IMG/VR virus record: IMGVR_UViG_2534682060_000017
Location: 1-40,668 of that record
Source of the DNA: a virus
Lineage: Duplodnaviria; Heunggongvirae; Uroviricota; Caudoviricetes
DNA length: 40,668 bases
Strand: one strand, 5' to 3'
The notes under the pieces were generated by a model. The model was not told where the DNA came from, ran no database searches, and saw only the letters and a list, made by a program, of their open reading frames with translations. Made by a program: the position numbers and the translations under genes. Of this stretch, positions 10,655 through 22,946 are shown piece by piece. Each line of letters starts with the position of its first letter. Position 1 is the first letter of the stretch.

Positions 10655-13159
10655 ATGGAGAAAACATTTATTTCGGAAATATTATCAGCTTATCATCATT
10701 TACAATTAGAAAATGCAAATGAAGCAGCCACAAGACTAAAAGTGATAGATCGGGTATTAAAGGAAGTCTTGATGTGGACTGATAGTGATATAAAACCAGA
10801 AGAGCATGTGACTGAAGATGGTTTGACAACTTATGCTGATTATATACTAAAAACAGCTAATATTGCTCTTGTTGTTGAAGCTAAAAAGGCAGGGCCAAGC
10901 TTTAGTACAATTCCAGGAAAAAGAAAAATAAAGCTAAGTAATAGTTTTTTACAAAGTGATCTTGGTGAAGCGATAATACAAGCTAGAGATTACGCCAGGA
11001 AATTTGGTATAGATTATGCTGTCGCTACGAATGGAAATGTATGGGCATGTTTTGCAGCTCAGAGGCATGACAATGTCAAATTTAATGATTCAATAGCGCT
11101 TGTGTTCTGGTCGTTAGAAGATTGCTTAAATGATAATTATCAAGAATTCTATGATTTACTTAGTCGTGAAAATGTTATATCAGGAAGTCTAGAAACAGCA
11201 CTTTTAGGTCGCGTCGAAAATCAAATAGAATTTAGAAAATTAAGAAATTTTTATTCGCAACAAAACAGAACACAGACAAATAATCCAATATATCATTTGA
11301 TTGCTGATGAATTAAGGTTGGCTTTTTCTGATTCTATACTTTACTTGGATGAAGACTCCTTTGATAAATGTTATGTTTCAACACCAGAAACTATGAGATT
11401 CGATAGTAAAATTAGAATGAATATAGGTAGGCGTTCAAGTGTGCTGAATGGTGAAGTACTAAAAGGGCTTAATGATAAAGATACAAAAAGAATAGTTGAT
11501 AAGTTTCAGGTTAAAGGGAAGAAAAAAATAAAAGTCAGGAATGACAAACCTCTCGCGATCTTGTTACTTGGGACTGTAGGTGCAGGTAAAACAACATTTC
11601 TTCATTACATGAGAAAGGTTAGAATAAAAGAGTTTTTTTCAAATCAATGTGATATCTTGACGCCGCATTGGGTTCATATAGACTTTCTAGATAATCCATC
11701 AGAAAGTTCAATAGTCGATTTTATTTATAAATCAATTCTGGAATATATCAATAAGCATCCTGTTTTGAGTAATAAGGATTTTGTATTTGATGCATTTCGA
11801 GAAGATATTGAGGCGATAAAATCAGGACCTCTTTTTTTATTGAGTGAGGATCAAAAAAATACCAGAATCTCGGATTTTTTATATGAACAATATAAAAAGA
11901 TAAAACCTTATGTTGATAAAATAATAAGTCGCGTTACAAAAGAGACATCTTTTTTTCTTGTTATTGATAACGTTGATCAGATCGAGTTTGATGATATCCA
12001 GTCCCGGATATTTACCGAGTCATTTTCAATTTCCAGAGCGCTTTCATTAAATTTAGTACTTTCATTGAGGCAGTCTACATTTATCAAACATAAAAACTCA
12101 CCTGCTATAGATGCTTTCGATTTTGAAGTTATACAAATAGATCCACCGAGAATAAGTAGTGTGATTGCAAAACGCTTTGCACTAGTAAAGTATATGACAA
12201 GTAATAAAAGTGGAAATTTTATTGCAGAAAATGGCGCTAAAGTTGTATTGGATGATATATCACAATTAGTCGATATTATTAGTGGGTCTGTGCTGGGAAG
12301 TGAGATTGGAACACGTATTGAAGTTCTTGCTACGGATGATGTTCGATTAGCATTACGTATGACTCGTGAGTTCTTAGAAAGAGGGTATACGAGTCCAGGT
12401 AAAGCAGTACAAATTTTCAGAGAACAAGGAAGATATCTTCTTCCACGTCATGAGGCATTTAGAGCTATATTACTGGGTACTGAGTTGACTTATAGCGAGT
12501 CAACGTCGACTATTGCGAACCCGTTTGATTCGAATTTAGCTGTGACACAAATGCAATTATTGAGGCTGTACATTCTTAATGTTATCGTTTCGTATGCAAG
12601 CGATCCCGGATTCAGACAAATCGATGGTTCGGTAATAACTGAAAAGTTAAGGTTAATTGGTATAGGTGACTCTTTCACGCATCGAGTTCTCGTTGATTTA
12701 TGCAATAAAAGGTTTTTGTTCACCGTAAATCACGGAGATCCAACAGCTTCATCAAGTTTCATTCCTTCTCGGCTGGGGGGGTATATTGCAAAAGAACTTA
12801 TTAGTAATTTCACGTTTATAGAGTGTATGCTTTATGATACATATATTGCTGATGCTAAGGTATGGAGTAGATTAAGAGATCTGAGTGCTAGAATTGAGTC
12901 TGAAAGAGATGTAATAAAAAGGATCACAATGCGTGTAAGTCGAGCAAAAACTTTCTATTATCAAATGGAAAAACTTATTTCACCGCTTTGTTCCGAAGCT
13001 ATTATAAGAGGGTTGCCTTCACAATGGTGTTCTAACCCTCTTCAGGAGCGTTTACCTGAGTTAAGAAAAGAACTAAGAAGAGTTCTTAATTCTGCAAAAA
13101 AAACATATCAACCGAAACAGGATGATTCGTCTAAGTATTTCCTTGATGAAACGGTTTAA
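10655..13159 (+). CDS. Candidate anti-phage defence protein: N-terminal HsdR-N/Mrr-like PD-(D/E)xK nuclease domain fused to P-loop NTPase (Walker A GTVGAGKTT, Walker B FFLVIDNVD) and C-terminal helical domain
   Basis: 834-aa ORF, markedly AT-rich versus flanking phage genes; N-terminus ATRLKVIDRVL..LMW ... ADYIL ... VVEAKK fits the HsdR-N/Mrr D...ExK pattern; Walker A at aa 306-314, hhhhDN Walker B at about aa 433-439; flanked by AT-rich non-coding DNA. Confidence 0.85.
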   Translation: MEKTFISEILSAYHHLQLENANEAATRLKVIDRVLKEVLMWTDSDIKPEEHVTEDGLTTYADYILKTANIALVVEAKKAGPSFSTIPGKRKIKLSNSFLQSDLGEAIIQARDYARKFGIDYAVATNGNVWACFAAQRHDNVKFNDSIALVFWSLEDCLNDNYQEFYDLLSRENVISGSLETALLGRVENQIEFRKLRNFYSQQNRTQTNNPIYHLIADELRLAFSDSILYLDEDSFDKCYVSTPETMRFDSKIRMNIGRRSSVLNGEVLKGLNDKDTKRIVDKFQVKGKKKIKVRNDKPLAILLLGTVGAGKTTFLHYMRKVRIKEFFSNQCDILTPHWVHIDFLDNPSESSIVDFIYKSILEYINKHPVLSNKDFVFDAFREDIEAIKSGPLFLLSEDQKNTRISDFLYEQYKKIKPYVDKIISRVTKETSFFLVIDNVDQIEFDDIQSRIFTESFSISRALSLNLVLSLRQSTFIKHKNSPAIDAFDFEVIQIDPPRISSVIAKRFALVKYMTSNKSGNFIAENGAKVVLDDISQLVDIISGSVLGSEIGTRIEVLATDDVRLALRMTREFLERGYTSPGKAVQIFREQGRYLLPRHEAFRAILLGTELTYSESTSTIANPFDSNLAVTQMQLLRLYILNVIVSYASDPGFRQIDGSVITEKLRLIGIGDSFTHRVLVDLCNKRFLFTVNHGDPTASSSFIPSRLGGYIAKELISNFTFIECMLYDTYIADAKVWSRLRDLSARIESERDVIKRITMRVSRAKTFYYQMEKLISPLCSEAIIRGLPSQWCSNPLQERLPELRKELRRVLNSAKKTYQPKQDDSSKYFLDETV

Positions 13160-16518: not shown

Positions 16519-16878
16519 ATGGGGATAGAATTTGTTTTGCCTTACCCGCCGACGGTGAATACCTACTGGCGTCGTCGTGGCAGCACATATTTTGTATCAA
16601 AAGCAGGGGAGCGTTATCGCCGGGATGTGGCGCTTATTGTTCGCCAGCAGCGACTGAAATTAAATCTGTCCGGAAGGCTGGCAATAAAAATTATTGCAGA
16701 GCCGCCGGATAAGCGCCGTCGTGACCTGGACAATATTCTGAAAGCACCGCTGGATGCACTGATGCATGCGGGGCTTCTCATAGACGACGAGCAGTTTGAT
16801 GAAATCAATATTGTGCGCGGTCAGCTCGTTCCTGGTGGTCGGTTGGGGATAAAAATCACAGAACTGGAGTGCGCATGA
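16519..16878 (+). CDS. rusA: RusA Holliday junction resolvase
   Basis: 119-aa product with RusA hallmarks (PPTVNTYWRRRG... DKRRRDLDNILKAPLDAL ... GGRLGIKITE); AAGAGG RBS. Confidence 0.85.
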   Translation: MGIEFVLPYPPTVNTYWRRRGSTYFVSKAGERYRRDVALIVRQQRLKLNLSGRLAIKIIAEPPDKRRRDLDNILKAPLDALMHAGLLIDDEQFDEINIVRGQLVPGGRLGIKITELECA

Positions 16879-17540
16879 ATAACCAGTATTTACAGTTTGT
16901 GCGTGAGCAGCTCATTATCGCCACCGCTGATTTGAGTGGGGCAACAAAAGGTCAGCTTGAAGCCTGGCAGGAGAATGCCATGTTCGATACAGGGCGTTAC
17001 AGGCGTAAAAAAATCCGGTACCGAGATGAAGTGACCGGAAAAATGATTACGCGGGATAATCCACCAATCCCGGGGAAACAATCGCTGGCGAAGGGGACGT
17101 CAATTCCTCTGGTCAGTCCGGTTGAGTTTTCGACATCATCGTGGCGGCGGGCTGTTCTGTCTCTTGAAGAACATCATAAAGCCTGGCTGCTGTGGTGTTA
17201 CAGCGGTAGCATTTGCTGGGAGCATCAGATCGCGATAACGCAGTGGGCGTGGACTGAATTTAATGCTCAATCCGGTACCAGAAAAATTGCAGGAAAAACT
17301 CTGGTGCGCCTGAAGACGTTGATCTGGTTGGCGGCGCAGGCGGTAAAAGCTGAGCTTTTTGGTGGGGAAGGTTACGAATACCAGGAACTGGCGTTACTGG
17401 TGGGAGTAACAACCAAAAACTGGTCCAAGACATTTACTGGTCACTGGGTTGCAATGAAACACATTTTTCATCGGCTGGATGGTGAAGCTTTATTGTTGGT
17501 GGAGGGAACACGTTCAAAACAAAAGGCGGCATTTTCATAG
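16875..17540 (+). CDS. Putative late gene antiterminator (Q-like)
   Basis: ATG overlaps rusA stop (ATGA); position between rusA and late promoter/lysis genes; N-terminus reminiscent of Q-type antiterminators; not verified. Confidence 0.55.
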   Translation: MNNQYLQFVREQLIIATADLSGATKGQLEAWQENAMFDTGRYRRKKIRYRDEVTGKMITRDNPPIPGKQSLAKGTSIPLVSPVEFSTSSWRRAVLSLEEHHKAWLLWCYSGSICWEHQIAITQWAWTEFNAQSGTRKIAGKTLVRLKTLIWLAAQAVKAELFGGEGYEYQELALLVGVTTKNWSKTFTGHWVAMKHIFHRLDGEALLLVEGTRSKQKAAFS

Positions 17541-17547
17541 CAAAGTA

Positions 17548-17576
17548 TTGCAAAAGTAGATAAAAAGGCATATATT
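17548..17576 (+). promoter_or_regulatory. Predicted late promoter (pR' analogue)
   Basis: TTGCAA, 17-bp spacer, TATATT, immediately downstream of Q-like gene. Confidence 0.5.
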
Positions 17577-17626
17577 TCGTGTGAATCTGATATTTTGCCG
17601 TTTTTATACGTGATGGCAAAGCTAGT

Positions 17627-17652
17627 AAAACCCGTGACCGAGCGGGTTTTTT
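17627..17652 (+). terminator. tR'-like terminator downstream of late promoter
   Basis: Short stem CCCG / CGGG followed by T8 about 50 nt after the predicted -10. Confidence 0.5.
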
Positions 17653-17795
17653 TTATCCCCAAAAAAATGGCATAGACATTAAACGTGATGATGATTGTGC
17701 CAATACTTTCTCCATCAATGACGCCCCTTGACTGCATGGAATCCAATTTGTTATGTAATATGTGTTGATATTTTTGAGTTGTTAATGGTGTTACT

Positions 17796-18509
17796 ATGGA
17801 TGACAGTGCTCTGCTCAGAAACTCTTCACTTTTTGTTGCTTATATGGGCTGTCTAGGATGGGGAAGCGCTTATTTCTATGGATGGGGTACTTCATTTTAC
17901 TATGGCTTTCCATGGTGGGTTGTCGGGGCTGGTGTCGATGATGTAGCACGAAGTTTGTTTTATGCTGTGACAGTTATCGTTATATTCCTTATTGGATGGG
18001 GAGTTGGTATTGTTTTCTTTTTGGGCATAAAACAAAAGCGCAATATACAAAATTTGAGTTTTATCCGGCTTTTTCTCGCGATATTGCTGCTTTTTATTCC
18101 ACCTGTTCTGGAGTTTTCGGTAATTCATCAGCATGTTGAGCCAGATGTACTGATTTTCTGCATTCTTGCTGCCTTTACAATCACGCTTTTTGTCAGGTTT
18201 GGAAGAAGACTTGTTTCAGTCAAATGTTTTTCGGAAATGTCTTTTATTCGTCATCACCGAATTGAGTTCATGATGGCTGGGTTTATGATTTATTTCTGGG
18301 CATTCTCTCTTATTGCCGGTTGGTACAAACCACAGTTTAAGAGGGAATATCAGGCGATCCACTATGAGAATGTATGGTATTACATTATTGCGCGTTATGA
18401 TGATCGTCTGGTGTTATCGAAATCATACAGGAGTGGGGGTAAGAAATTCGTTATATTTAATAGCGGAAATATTAATGATTTTGAAATTAATACAGTCAGA
18501 GTGCGTTAA
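17796..18509 (+). CDS. AT-rich cargo gene encoding multi-pass membrane protein of unknown function
   Basis: 237-aa ORF with several hydrophobic helices in the N-terminal two thirds and a soluble C-terminal domain; lower GC than phage backbone; sits in the post-Q moron position. Confidence 0.6.
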   Translation: MDDSALLRNSSLFVAYMGCLGWGSAYFYGWGTSFYYGFPWWVVGAGVDDVARSLFYAVTVIVIFLIGWGVGIVFFLGIKQKRNIQNLSFIRLFLAILLLFIPPVLEFSVIHQHVEPDVLIFCILAAFTITLFVRFGRRLVSVKCFSEMSFIRHHRIEFMMAGFMIYFWAFSLIAGWYKPQFKREYQAIHYENVWYYIIARYDDRLVLSKSYRSGGKKFVIFNSGNINDFEINTVRVR

Positions 18510-18682
18510 AATTTCTTGAGTAACAAAGATTTTTACCGCCCGCCATTGAGAGGTTTTTTATGCCAGAAAAATGGTTCGGTACATAAAATGTGCAGGTGGT
18601 TATTAATACCGGTCTTTCAGCTTGCTGGCTTTTTCGACAAGAGTTATTGGTATGTCACGTTAACCAATAAAGAGAAAAAGAC

Positions 18683-18880
18683 ATGCTAAAACAGCAGGAT
18701 ATGACCGAAACAGCCAGAGTGGTGTTTAATGAATTAAGCGTCACTGAACCGGCAACAGTTGGGGAAATTGCGCAGAATACTTACCTTTCACGCGAACGCT
18801 GTCAGTTAATACTGACCCAGCTTGTTATGGCGGGTCTGGCAGATTATCAGTTCGGTTGTTACAGACGCCTTCCGCAGTGA
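18683..18880 (+). CDS. Small hypothetical protein (possible winged-helix DNA-binding)
   Basis: 65-aa ORF with purine-rich RBS; ..ATVGEIAQNTYLSRERCQLILTQLVMAGLA.. looks HTH-like. Confidence 0.4.
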   Translation: MLKQQDMTETARVVFNELSVTEPATVGEIAQNTYLSRERCQLILTQLVMAGLADYQFGCYRRLPQ

Positions 18881-19030: not shown

Positions 19031-20116
19031 ATGGTTGATACTGTAAAAATATCCAGTTGTGAGTTAATCAACGCTGATTGCCTGGAATTTATCCAGACCT
19101 TACCGGAAAACTCTGTCGATCTGATAGTCACAGACCCGCCATACTTTAAAGTGAAGCCCGAGGGCTGGGATAACCAGTGGAAGGGCGACGATGATTACCT
19201 GAAATGGCTGGATCAGTGTCTGGCTCAGTTCTGGCGGGTACTGAAACCTGCCGGAAGTCTCTACCTGTTCTGTGGTCATCGCCTGGCATCTGACACCGAA
19301 ATCATGATGCGTGAGCGCTTTAATGTGCTGAACCACATTATCTGGGCGAAGCCATCCGGACGCTGGAACGGGTGCAACAAAGAAAGCCTGCGGGCGTATT
19401 TCCCGGCAACAGAGCGCATTCTGTTTGCCGAACATTATCAGGGGCCATACCAGCCAAAAAATGATGGCTATGCGGCAAAGGAGCGCGAGCTTAAACAACA
19501 CGTCATGGCCCCGCTGATTTCTTACTTCCGTGATGCGCGTGAATCACTGGGGATAACGTCCAAACAGATAGCGGAAGCCACCGGAAAGAAAAACATGGTG
19601 TCGCACTGGTTTGGTACCTGTCAGTGGCAGTTACCGAACGAAGCTGATTACAGAAAACTGCAGGCGCTGTTCGCGTGTGTTGCAGAAGAAAAGCACCAGC
19701 GTGGGGAGCTGGCAACGCCACACCAGCAACTGGTCAGCACATACAGTGAACTGAACCGGCAATATGCCAGTCTGCTTGAGGAATACAAATCTCTGCGGCG
19801 TTATTTTTCTGTATCGGCCGCCGTTCCTTATACGGATGTCTGGACGCATAAGCCCGTACAGTATTATCCGGGTAAGCATCCCTGCGAAAAACCGGCGGAT
19901 ATGTTGCGTCAGATAATTTCTGCCAGCAGTCGTCCGGGGGATGTGGTTGCGGATTTTTTTATGGGATCGGGGGCAACAATAAAAGCAGCAATGGGATTGG
20001 GGCGTCGCACGATTGGGGTTGAACTTGAGTCCGGGCGTTTTGAACAAACAGTTGGTGAAATATTGGTGCTGAACGATAAATTGCGAAATGCACAATTAGA
20101 TAAGAACAGGAGCTAA
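19031..20116 (+). CDS. Orphan DNA methyltransferase (DPPY motif; N6-adenine/N4-cytosine beta class)
   Basis: 361-aa ORF with catalytic motif IV DLIVTDPPY near the N-terminus and SAM-binding FMGSGAT near the C-terminus; no adjacent restriction endonuclease gene. Confidence 0.85.
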   Translation: MVDTVKISSCELINADCLEFIQTLPENSVDLIVTDPPYFKVKPEGWDNQWKGDDDYLKWLDQCLAQFWRVLKPAGSLYLFCGHRLASDTEIMMRERFNVLNHIIWAKPSGRWNGCNKESLRAYFPATERILFAEHYQGPYQPKNDGYAAKERELKQHVMAPLISYFRDARESLGITSKQIAEATGKKNMVSHWFGTCQWQLPNEADYRKLQALFACVAEEKHQRGELATPHQQLVSTYSELNRQYASLLEEYKSLRRYFSVSAAVPYTDVWTHKPVQYYPGKHPCEKPADMLRQIISASSRPGDVVADFFMGSGATIKAAMGLGRRTIGVELESGRFEQTVGEILVLNDKLRNAQLDKNRS

Positions 20117-21272: not shown

Positions 21273-21608
21273 CTATGCTGGGATGACGGAAATGGAGTGC
21301 CGAATAGCTGCACTTCCGCCTCCTAAATCAATTGTAATATTCCAGTAACCTGAATGCGGTACATGAAGGTGGGCCGGTAATCTCTGAAAAAAACCGCCAC
21401 CACCGTGATGATGAAAGCTTCTTGCGTTGCGGTAGTTATTAAAGTTTGTATCTGTCATCAGCAAAATATTGCACTGATGAGAGCAGTCAACCACTACCGT
21501 ATCTCCTGCATTTAAATACATTCTTTTATGTAAAAACTGCATGTGATTTCCCTGAACAGAGGTAATCAGCCATCCCTCTTTCTCTATGATGAGCCAGCGT
21601 CCCACCAC
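21273..21608 (-). CDS. Hypothetical protein (uncertain)
   Basis: 111-aa minus-strand ORF between cargo and lysis genes; His/Gly-rich; no clear RBS. Confidence 0.3.
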   Translation of the reverse strand: MVGRWLIIEKEGWLITSVQGNHMQFLHKRMYLNAGDTVVVDCSHQCNILLMTDTNFNNYRNARSFHHHGGGGFFQRLPAHLHVPHSGYWNITIDLGGGSAAIRHSISVIPA

Positions 21609-21741: not shown

Positions 21742-22131
21742 ATGTCTGAACCCTTATCCGGTTCCAGCACTGCTGTGGCGCTCGGCGGGGCGACGGTATT
21801 CGGGCTGTTTACCGGGACGGATTTCGGGATTGTGTTTGGCGCGTTTGCCGGGGCGTTGTTTGTGGCCACGATGCCACAGGTGATTTCTGTCTGGCGTGTG
21901 GCGGCGCATTTTCTGGTGTCGTTCATTGTTGGCGTGCTGGGGGCGGATGTCCTTGCGTCCTGGCTGGTCGAAAAATTGAATCTCCACAGCACATCTCTCG
22001 ACGCGCTTTGTGCGGTACTGGTATCGGTGGTGTCGGTGAAGATTCTCTCATTCATCCACCAGCAGGATATCGCATCGCTGGTATCCGGGCTGTTCTCCCG
22101 TCTGCGGGGTGGAGGCGGTAATGTTAAGTAA
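21742..22131 (+). CDS. Putative holin
   Basis: ATG 21742 with GGAG RBS; product has hydrophobic helices and charged C-terminus; directly upstream of endolysin. Confidence 0.6.
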   Translation: MSEPLSGSSTAVALGGATVFGLFTGTDFGIVFGAFAGALFVATMPQVISVWRVAAHFLVSFIVGVLGADVLASWLVEKLNLHSTSLDALCAVLVSVVSVKILSFIHQQDIASLVSGLFSRLRGGGGNVK

Positions 22132-22399
22132 CCTTCCCGGATTACTGAATGTGGTGTTAAGCACGGTTATCGTGCTGACGCTCTTTTTTTATCGTCGTGG
22201 TGAGTCGAGACATAAACCGCTGATGTCGTGGCTGGCCTGGCTGCTGATGCTGCTTTATGCCTTTGCGCCGCTTTGTTATCTGTGTGGTCGCTTTCCACCC
22301 GGTAACTGGCTGGTCGTCCTGATTAACCTGGTGTTCTGCGTGCTGGTGATACGAGCACGCGGGAACGTATCAAAAATCCTTGTATTACGAAGGCGCTGA
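22121..22399 (+). CDS. Second holin/antiholin-like membrane protein
   Basis: ATG 22121 with GGAGG RBS; 92 aa, three predicted TM helices, basic C-terminus; overlaps neighbours. Confidence 0.5.
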   Translation: MLSNLPGLLNVVLSTVIVLTLFFYRRGESRHKPLMSWLAWLLMLLYAFAPLCYLCGRFPPGNWLVVLINLVFCVLVIRARGNVSKILVLRRR

Positions 22400-22400
22400 T

Positions 22401-22946
22401 ATGAAGTCGAAAGATGAAATTTTTGACGAAATTCTGGGAAAAGAGGGCGGTTACGTCAATCACCCGGATGATAAAGGTGGTCCGACTAAATGGGGCATCA
22501 CTGAAAAAGTTGCCCGTGCACACGGTTATCAGGGCGATATGCGTGACCTGACGCGTGGGCAGGCGCTGGAAATACTCGAGGCGGACTACTGGTACGGACC
22601 ACGATTCGACCAGGTTGAGGACCTGTCTCCGGATATTGCCGCAGAGTTGTGCGATACGGGCGTGAACATGGGGCCAACTGTGGCGTCCAGAATGCTTCAG
22701 CGCTGGCTGAACGTTTTCAACCTGCGCGGGAAACTCTATCCGGATATGGATGCTGATGGACGCATCGGGCCGCGTACTCTTAATGCATTACGGGCATATC
22801 TGAAAAATCGCAGCAGGGATGGTGAACTGGTACTGGTGAAAGCCCTGAACTGTACGCAGGGCGAGCGTTATCTGGAGCTGGCAGAGAAACGCGAGGCCAA
22901 TGAGTCGTTTGTCTATGGCTGGATGAAAGAGCGCGTGGTGGTTTAA
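22401..22946 (+). CDS. Endolysin, glycoside hydrolase family 108-like with peptidoglycan-binding domain
   Basis: N-terminal EILGKEGGYVNHPDDKGGPTKWGIT signature of GH108 lysozymes; ATG overlaps upstream gene. Confidence 0.85.
   Translation: MKSKDEIFDEILGKEGGYVNHPDDKGGPTKWGITEKVARAHGYQGDMRDLTRGQALEILEADYWYGPRFDQVEDLSPDIAAELCDTGVNMGPTVASRMLQRWLNVFNLRGKLYPDMDADGRIGPRTLNALRAYLKNRSRDGELVLVKALNCTQGERYLELAEKREANESFVYGWMKERVVV

Follow-up and report, generated by a model that had tools for sequence, protein, structure and literature searches.

A cargo gene behind the late antiterminator Q of a lambdoid prophage encodes a predicted inner-membrane protein of the PF27470 (TfpB)/STM1630 family

Genes and features of the Q-to-lysis region

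The subject of this work is a predicted inner-membrane protein of 237 amino acids (aa) encoded in a 40,668-nucleotide stretch of caudoviral DNA (IMG/VR record IMGVR_UViG_2534682060_000017, positions 1 to 40,668), which is referred to below as the window. The list of open reading frames (ORFs) places its gene on the plus strand at 17796..18509, with an ATG start, behind a gene (16869..17540, plus strand) for a 223-aa Q-type late antiterminator of the Q82/434-like kind, which matches the Pfam family Phage_antiter_Q (PF06323) with E 3.6e-91 and PHROG 304, is 76% identical to the Q of phage 434, and is itself preceded by the genes for RusA and a DUF968 protein. An earlier note, made from the sequence alone, had described an AT-rich ORF of this length behind a Q-like antiterminator, and both are as described: the GC content of the ORF is 38.9% (36% at third codon positions), against 48.7% for the window and about 50% for the Q region, and the 500-nt GC profile falls to 0.37-0.40 across it. 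At its other end the Q-to-lysis slot is closed by a plus-strand lysis cassette with two holins and a GH108 endolysin (21742..22946), which lies 3.2 kb downstream of the ORF and was recognized by tblastn with the annotated proteins of another locus (L003) and from the RefSeq annotation of a near-identical prophage. While this cargo slot and the protein family were already known, the present analysis adds a structural model with its topology, an empty site, the association with three Q types and with stx1, the prevalence of the gene and the link to STM1630 of Salmonella.

RefSeq has the identical protein as WP_000342735.1, annotated in most records as "hypothetical protein" and in the newest as "STM1630 family protein". 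It is a member of a family already catalogued, with function unknown, as PF27470 (TfpB) in Pfam, as the STM1630 family at NCBI and as PHROG 1521: the PF27470 assignment is precomputed for its 90% cluster representative and for every listed homologue, and PHROG 1521 was matched with E 9.6e-85 over residues 17-237, all four of its PHROG matches being to families of unknown function. Scans of the protein against Pfam, NCBIfam and PADLOC gave no match, the scanned copies of the first two being without the PF27470 model; a Pfam scan of 25 family members yielded chance-level matches only, no family among the 5027 models of PADLOC-DB v2 was reached at E <= 0.1, and a profile search of the PDB sequences gave nothing at E <= 1. 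A profile search of 1.84 billion cluster representatives recovered just 76 at E <= 0.001, and the PF27470 family is therefore small; a second, word-indexed homology search with a mixed alignment returned almost solely the close homologues already found. The members share an N-terminal AY.Y..G....Y.G.P motif, a multi-pass region and a C-terminal beta domain with the signature YY(I/V)L, over a length of ~235-260 aa, and all three features stay in register in an alignment (A2) that reaches to relatives of no more than 14% identity.

Predicted structure and membrane topology

A first AlphaFold model, built from close homologues, had a pLDDT of 60, which rose to 81 (pTM 0.75) with alignment A2 because of the distant relatives that it added. 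As modeled, the protein has five transmembrane helices (residues ~10-36, 47-78, 89-111, 116-138 and 155-181) and a C-terminal five-stranded beta domain of ~55 residues (184-235), in agreement with the earlier description of a polytopic protein that ends in a soluble domain; a hydropathy scan with a 19-residue window has four strongly hydrophobic peaks, against the five helices of the model. The topology prediction that the note had called for was carried out by counting lysine and arginine residues, and for each of the 25 family members counted the result favored N-in/C-out, with the N-terminus, loop 2 and loop 4 on the inner side. As these counts favor an N-in orientation, the C-terminal domain is predicted to be periplasmic; by the positive-inside rule, then, the N-terminus is probably cytoplasmic and the beta domain probably faces the periplasm. 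Across the wider family the number of invariant polar residues in alignment A2 is zero, which argues against an enzyme, and no conserved catalytic-type residue was found.

The protein was also compared with holins, which typically have ~70-150 aa, one to three and rarely four helices, a charged C-terminus and a gene beside that of the endolysin. With 237 aa, five helices and a distance of 3.2 kb from the holin genes it departs from this pattern, and it has no similarity to the holin or spanin families of Pfam and PHROG, so that the earlier judgment that it is no holin and that the lysis cassette lies further downstream stands. Among solved or viral structures, defense models and lysis families, none resembles it.

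Late promoter, terminator and leader

Starting 8 nt past the stop codon of Q is a pR'-like late promoter, TTGCAA-17-TATATT (17548..17576, plus strand), found by consensus scan and conservation. The earlier note had reported it as near-consensus; the promoter is present and is conserved with phage 434, but it matches 9 of 12 consensus positions, which does not merit that description, and matches of the 9/12 type are no more frequent in the region than expected by chance (8 found versus 7.9 expected in shuffles). Both hexamers are kept in phage 434, in other loci with a PF06323-type Q and in an empty-site locus described below, and the call was hence made on position and conservation, not on match score. 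Downstream follow a short leader-RNA hairpin and a tR'-like intrinsic terminator (17593..17658, plus strand; terminator scan and RNA folding). This is the short terminator that had been noticed before, and it consists of a 9-bp GC-rich stem (17627-17650) and a U run; the predicted ~75-nt RNA from promoter to terminator forms two hairpins with an energy of -21.8 kcal/mol (z -3.2 versus shuffles). The terminator is conserved ahead of the membrane-protein gene behind all Q types, and the succession of promoter and terminator after Q is the usual pR'/tR' arrangement of lambdoid phages.

The remaining 17651..17795 (plus strand) constitute the leader of the cassette, with three elements: TTGAC, within TTGACT at 17728-17733; 18 nt further on, TG-n-TA at 17749-17753, within TGTTATGTA at 17749-17757; and a Shine-Dalgarno-like GGTG at 17787-17790. 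TTGAC and TTTG.TA.G are invariant in an alignment of all 43 distinct leaders, even for alleles whose proteins are just 56% identical, and ~140 bp of upstream DNA, comprising the terminator and the leader, accompany the gene whatever the Q type. No conserved RNA structure is apparent in the leader (consensus energy -1 kcal/mol) and an Rfam scan of 17300-18700 gave no match; therefore the conservation acts at the DNA level, and a riboswitch or thermosensor reading of the leader was dropped on the same grounds. The invariant TTGAC-18-TGnTA resembles an extended -10 sigma-70 promoter and is a candidate for the gene's own promoter. Given the position of the gene, Q-driven read-through of the terminator would result in its strong transcription, to which TTGAC-18-TGnTA might add some transcription in lysogens, where a gene of such AT-richness, if transcribed, would probably be subject to silencing by H-NS.

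A discrete cargo cassette in the late leader

The arrangement in the window is best understood by comparison with a related prophage, locus L042, in which a Q gene (89% identical), the promoter, the terminator and the leader are followed by the gene for a 65-aa winged-helix protein with nothing in between, i.e., an empty site: the membrane-protein cassette is missing, and the winged-helix gene and a methyltransferase gene come straight after Q. In the window this arrangement is enlarged by ~0.9 kb flanked by terminator-leader repeats, the downstream one of which (18520..18682, plus strand; identified as a direct repeat, D2, and by alignments) is a degenerate second copy that marks the 3' boundary of the cassette and serves as leader of the next gene. 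Because of the empty site and these flanking copies, the membrane-protein gene is a discrete cargo cassette, or "moron", of ~0.9 kb (~17651-18553) in the late leader; that it is cargo in the slot between Q and the lysis genes agrees with the earlier note, which had placed it in the post-Q moron position. Two properties of morons in the sense of Hendrix and colleagues are evident, namely presence or absence at one site in related phages and an atypical nucleotide composition; as for the third, a promoter and terminator of its own, TTGAC-18-TGnTA is invariant but has a weak -10, and the downstream terminator copy is so degenerate that the terminator fold is lost (z -0.5). By this fold test no working terminator separates the gene from the late genes behind it.

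We then surveyed the upstream neighbors in the 80 best IMG/VR loci, 79 of which were informative; as these are the most similar loci and include many near-identical prophages, the following counts are not independent of each other. A Q gene lies directly upstream in 72 of the 79, and it belongs to one of three unrelated types, with a PF06323 Q ending <= 350 bp upstream in 47 loci, a PF03589 Q within the same distance in 19 and a DUF1133/PF06530-type Q within ~460 bp in six. Most of the other seven have a more distant Q, a transposase, an ORF6N protein or no tested gene at this position. In a single locus (L073:2162-7017; IMG/VR UViG_2859677112_000002) the upstream neighbors are genes for Stx1-like A and B subunits (315 and 89 aa), the order being a PF03589-type Q, stx1A/stx1B, a 69%-identical copy of the membrane-protein gene, a holin and an endolysin. 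This copy, directly after stx1A/stx1B, accords with the earlier statement that the slot is the one used by Shiga toxin (Stx) phages. Separately, we noticed that the closest database protein at 69% identity comes from Enterobacter cloacae, so that L073 may represent an Stx1 variant phage outside E. coli.

The gene is present in 1197 of 5426 complete E. coli genomes (22%), with up to four matching places per genome, and its carriers include O157:H7, O111:H8, O103:H2 and many swine and bovine isolates. Among sequenced phages it is confined to three records, one of phage 434 and two of Escherichia phage 2B8. According to the phage 434 record, the region of the gene is replaced in the variant 434B, as could be expected of a non-essential gene, provided that 434B is viable. 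No conserved partner gene emerged, as winged-helix protein, methyltransferase, DUF3927 and TerB are each found with some of the alleles only. Near-identical copies precede either a two-holin/GH108 cassette or a pinholin cassette of the 434/21 type, and a link between alleles and holin type was rejected for this reason.

These distributions bear on the possibility that the protein is an accessory of the late or lysis program, for instance one that modulates how holins are triggered or how the envelope is disrupted, with the Q-dependent late transcript as its sole source. Its gene always heads the late operon, in the same orientation as and upstream of the lysis genes, with no functional terminator before the late genes that follow, as might be expected of such an accessory. 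We nevertheless hold this to be very improbable, given that the alleles do not track the holin type, that homologues occur in chromosomes without phage lysis genes nearby, that the region is marked as replaced in 434B and that there is no similarity to holin or spanin families.

Selection and constraint

Of 86 gene copies 85 are full length, and across 52 distinct alleles the median pairwise ratio of nonsynonymous to synonymous substitution rates (dN/dS) is 0.14-0.19; the gene is thus real and under purifying selection. The constraint is unevenly spread, with dN/dS at 0.04 for residues 1-58, 0.07 for residues 155-185 and ~0.25 for helices 3-4 and the beta domain. Based on the lowest of these values, we identify the first helix and the first periplasmic loop, NSS..AY.G.LGWGSAYFYGWG.S.YYGFPWW..G..D..ARSL, as the constrained core. 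There is no sign of diversifying selection, even the most exposed part having a dN/dS of 0.25.

Other genes of the region

Behind the cassette, the next cargo gene of the late region (18683..18880, plus strand) encodes the 65-aa winged-helix-like protein, which matches PHROG 331 (function unknown) and, weakly, Pfam families of the TrmB/MarR type; it is a frequent but non-obligate neighbor, which follows the membrane-protein gene in loci of the window type, while 434-type loci, among others, lack it. More cargo of the same slot is an orphan N6/N4 DNA methyltransferase gene (19031..20116, plus strand; PF01555, E 1.5e-42; PADLOC MTase_II). No tRNAs were found in the Q-to-lysis slot, unlike in many Stx phages. 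The near-identical prophage mentioned above, from E. coli MS 119-7, is lambdoid and integrated beside yccA.

Further genes are recorded here as observations in their own right. Just upstream of the holins and inside the late operon, a counter-oriented ORF of 111 aa (21273-21608, minus strand) has a counterpart in the near-identical prophage that is annotated as a "DUF1883 domain-containing protein". Between the replication genes and hokD, in the most AT-rich part of the window (GC 0.31-0.37), is an 834-aa ORF (10655-13159, plus strand) with the RefSeq name "hypothetical protein", which displays faint Pfam matches to NACHT (E 1e-3) and to the restriction-enzyme N-terminal domain HSDR_N_2 (E 2.5e-3), and a faint match (E 3e-4) to the PADLOC model of a methyl-directed restriction enzyme; it looks like a candidate defense cargo gene of the STAND-NTPase/nuclease type. 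Lastly, phage 434 (L002:1666-2625) and an O157:H7 prophage (L103:3657-4616) carry on the opposite strand a gene for a lipid A deacylase (LpxR), another envelope-modifying cargo gene of this region, which follows a truncated fragment of a lambda-type Q and precedes ylcG and the functional Q82-like Q.

Relatives outside these prophages

Salmonella enterica possesses a copy with ~48% identity, also present in subspecies arizonae and diarizonae and located beside sseJ in Typhimurium, and copies with 24-30% identity occur in Neisseria, Conchiformibius, Uruburuella, Avibacterium, Actinobacillus and Mannheimia. The Neisseriaceae and Pasteurellaceae copies are solitary between housekeeping genes in every locus examined, and in these loci we observed no prophage, no pilin gene and no shared neighbor. 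Two genes away from another distant relative (L089) is one whose product carries a pilin-methylation motif at its N-terminus.

The last observation, along with the Pfam name TfpB, raises the question of whether the family has a role as a type IV pilus accessory. The name presumably derives from an ORF in the pilin-inversion region of Moraxella; a literature search on "TfpB" returned mostly chemistry and anesthesia papers along with an Acinetobacter ATPase, and the TfpB of Acinetobacter baylyi was rejected as a relative, as it is this unrelated ATPase and has the name alone in common. Proteins of the TfpY/FimB type are similar in size and are likewise membrane proteins with periplasmic beta domains (PMC11841053). 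They combine three helices with two beta-sheet domains, however, as opposed to the five helices and one beta domain found here, and no pilin gene adjoins the gene in the window or in the prophage, Neisseria, Pasteurellaceae and Salmonella loci, all of which makes this role highly improbable.

A function as orphan immunity protein against a membrane-targeting bacteriocin, a contact-dependent-inhibition toxin or a type VI effector would agree with a small, polytopic, non-enzymatic inner-membrane protein encoded by a lone gene that has spread horizontally among host-associated Proteobacteria, and immunity proteins to pore-forming colicins do have three to four transmembrane helices. No toxin gene, however, adjoins any family member examined, and no known immunity protein was matched in sequence or fold; we accordingly consider such a function very unlikely.

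A separate observation concerns a distant family member in an island beside icd (L093/L094:2176-5741), where its neighbor is an AAA_23/AAA_21 ATPase that has a partner of 167 aa; the island also contains a metallo-beta-lactamase-fold protein, with a faint match to the anti-Pycsar protein Apyc1, and SRAP fragments. By its gene content this neighborhood looks like a defense island, and icd is a known prophage integration site in E. coli.

The earlier note had guessed at an abortive-infection or superinfection-exclusion effector. Such a protein, produced in lysogens or at a late stage of infection, would block the entry of incoming phage DNA at the inner membrane or in the periplasm, or collapse the membrane upon infection. 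Many single membrane-cargo genes, such as those for HK97 gp15, P22 SieA and T4 Imm, later proved to encode exclusion proteins, and several features of the present gene would be compatible with this: a membrane protein with a predicted periplasmic domain specified by a single prophage cargo gene, the possible co-occurrence of several divergent copies in one genome, and the adjacency of one distant relative to an AAA_21/AAA_23 ATPase pair in an island. Conversely, none of the 5027 PADLOC models was matched, and the PHROG matches are all to families of unknown function; the relatives in Pasteurellaceae and Neisseriaceae reside stably between housekeeping genes and not in defense islands, which is unusual for defense genes; there is no sign of diversifying selection, with dN/dS at 0.25 in the exposed part and 0.04 in the N-terminal module; and Salmonella keeps the gene across subspecies under host-linked regulation. 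The homology search matched no characterized transporter, lysis or structural protein and no exclusion or defense family either, and so leaves the guess neither refuted nor supported. With solitary chromosomal relatives, and with STM1630 data that bear on colonization and host-associated expression and not on phage, exclusion is at present an unsupported guess and an unlikely, though not a negligible, explanation.

STM1630 and the proposed role in the envelope

What is known of the family from experiment concerns STM1630, the Typhimurium member, whose function is unknown. It is bound by H-NS and expressed in macrophages and in medium inducing Salmonella pathogenicity island 2 (SPI-2); signature-tagged transposon mutants are attenuated in calves and chicks, while a clean deletion grows normally in LB and replicates more in macrophages; and S. 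Typhi lacks the gene, while in the invasive ST313 lineage the promoter is dead, with a disrupted -10 box in every strain tested (PMC6785131 Text S1). It is also listed by a transcription profiling study of avirulent virulence-regulator mutants (PMC2639726), and its deletion was hypermotile in one screen (PMC4219756).

In light of the long solitary retention of the gene in the chromosomes of several host-associated lineages, together with the Salmonella data, we judge a role in host adaptation or some other benefit to the cell to be the likeliest. Specifically, we propose, with a probability of a little under two in five, that the protein acts in the envelope, non-enzymatically and to the advantage of the bacterial cell (lysogenic conversion), and not in the phage cycle or against phages. 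Its near-invariant N-terminal module, composed of helix 1 and the periplasmic loop after it (GWGSAYFYGWG..YYGFPWW..ARSL), would be the part that binds some conserved component of the inner membrane or the periplasm, and the more variable helices 3-4 and beta domain might tune the specificity of this interaction.

Several points weigh against this proposal. All experimental data for the family come from STM1630, which is ~48% identical and lies outside a prophage; its phenotypes are moreover slight or at odds with one another, the transposon insertions that cause attenuation could exert polar effects on the adjoining effector genes, and the abstract of a follow-up study does not include STM1630 among the altered-motility mutants that it names (PMC4534456). 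From its place right behind the late terminator the gene would be expressed for the most part in cells close to lysis. This is a poor fit to a colonization factor unless the leader has a genuine promoter of its own, and the putative -10 there (TATGTA) is weak, lacking the consensus final T, and was not called by the promoter scanner. Furthermore, the proposed mechanism is generic as regards the partner that is bound.

A more far-reaching conjecture, which we regard as doubtful but worth stating, is that PF27470 represents a new phage-disseminated class of single-gene inner-membrane effectors. Such effectors might be late exclusion proteins blocking DNA entry, or gut-colonization or anti-virulence factors that lambdoid phages, Stx phages included, spread among E. 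coli and that use the invariant helix 1 with its loop to act on some conserved machine of the envelope, with STM1630 as a domesticated chromosomal form. The gene is found in about one-fifth of complete E. coli genomes, often in multiple copies in Shiga-toxin strains, and in the very late-promoter slot that houses stx. Should the prophage copies prove to carry a trait that is host-related or directed against phages, a frequent form of lysogenic conversion would have been overlooked, and the STM1630 family would gain a function; otherwise this is one more uncharacterized prophage membrane protein.

Comparison with known systems

The exclusion proteins P22 SieA, HK97 gp15 and T4 Imm are, like the protein described here, single small inner-membrane proteins from phage accessory genes; there is no match to them in sequence or model, and they are expressed in lysogens or early and from other genome positions. 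The TfpY/TfpZ/FimB-like proteins share with it a length of ~235-245 aa, N-terminal helices, a periplasmic beta-rich C-terminus, a non-enzymatic nature and an obscure function, and in their case a terminator ahead of the accessory gene attenuates expression, which recalls the terminator-then-gene layout of the window (PMC11841053). They begin with three helices, continue with a mixed sheet of three strands that includes a beta-alpha-beta motif, and end with a helix leading into an antiparallel sheet of three strands, and their genes always adjoin a pilin gene (PMC11841053). The five consecutive helices, the single five-strand domain and the absence of an adjoining pilin set the present protein apart from these by description.

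STM1630 (SL1344_1560) is of the same family, with ~48% identity over the full length and the same length and architecture, and it too is AT-rich and horizontally acquired. Unlike the cassette gene it is chromosomal, between steB and sseJ, with neither a prophage nor a Q gene, and it is H-NS-bound, is induced in SPI-2 medium and macrophages, and has its own promoter ~200 nt upstream, in DNA that is not homologous to the prophage leader. An alignment of the Salmonella promoter with this leader was dropped, as the published primer puts the promoter at that non-homologous position.

Another counterpart is the "putative membrane protein" CPT_434_68 of phage 434, which is 56% identical, occupies the same place after a Q82-like Q and before the lysis cassette, and is preceded by a terminator and then by the conserved leader with TTGAC..TTTGTTATG; it is also found in Escherichia phage 2B8 and in O157:H7 prophages (WP_001302581.1). 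It differs in being another allele with a variable middle part, and in what comes next, which in phage 434 is DUF3927/TciB, a small membrane protein and a NanS-type esterase, and in the window the winged-helix protein and the methyltransferase.

Finally, the cassette can be set beside the other cargo known between Q and the lysis genes of lambdoid phages, such as stx, nanS-p, tRNAs and methyltransferases. Its product differs from these in being an integral membrane protein without known activity, as opposed to a secreted toxin or an enzyme, and the gene has no working terminator of its own. In common with them it occupies the same slot, where late-promoter expression by Q read-through is to be expected, it has an atypical composition and a presence that varies between similar phages, and it can co-occur with stx1AB.

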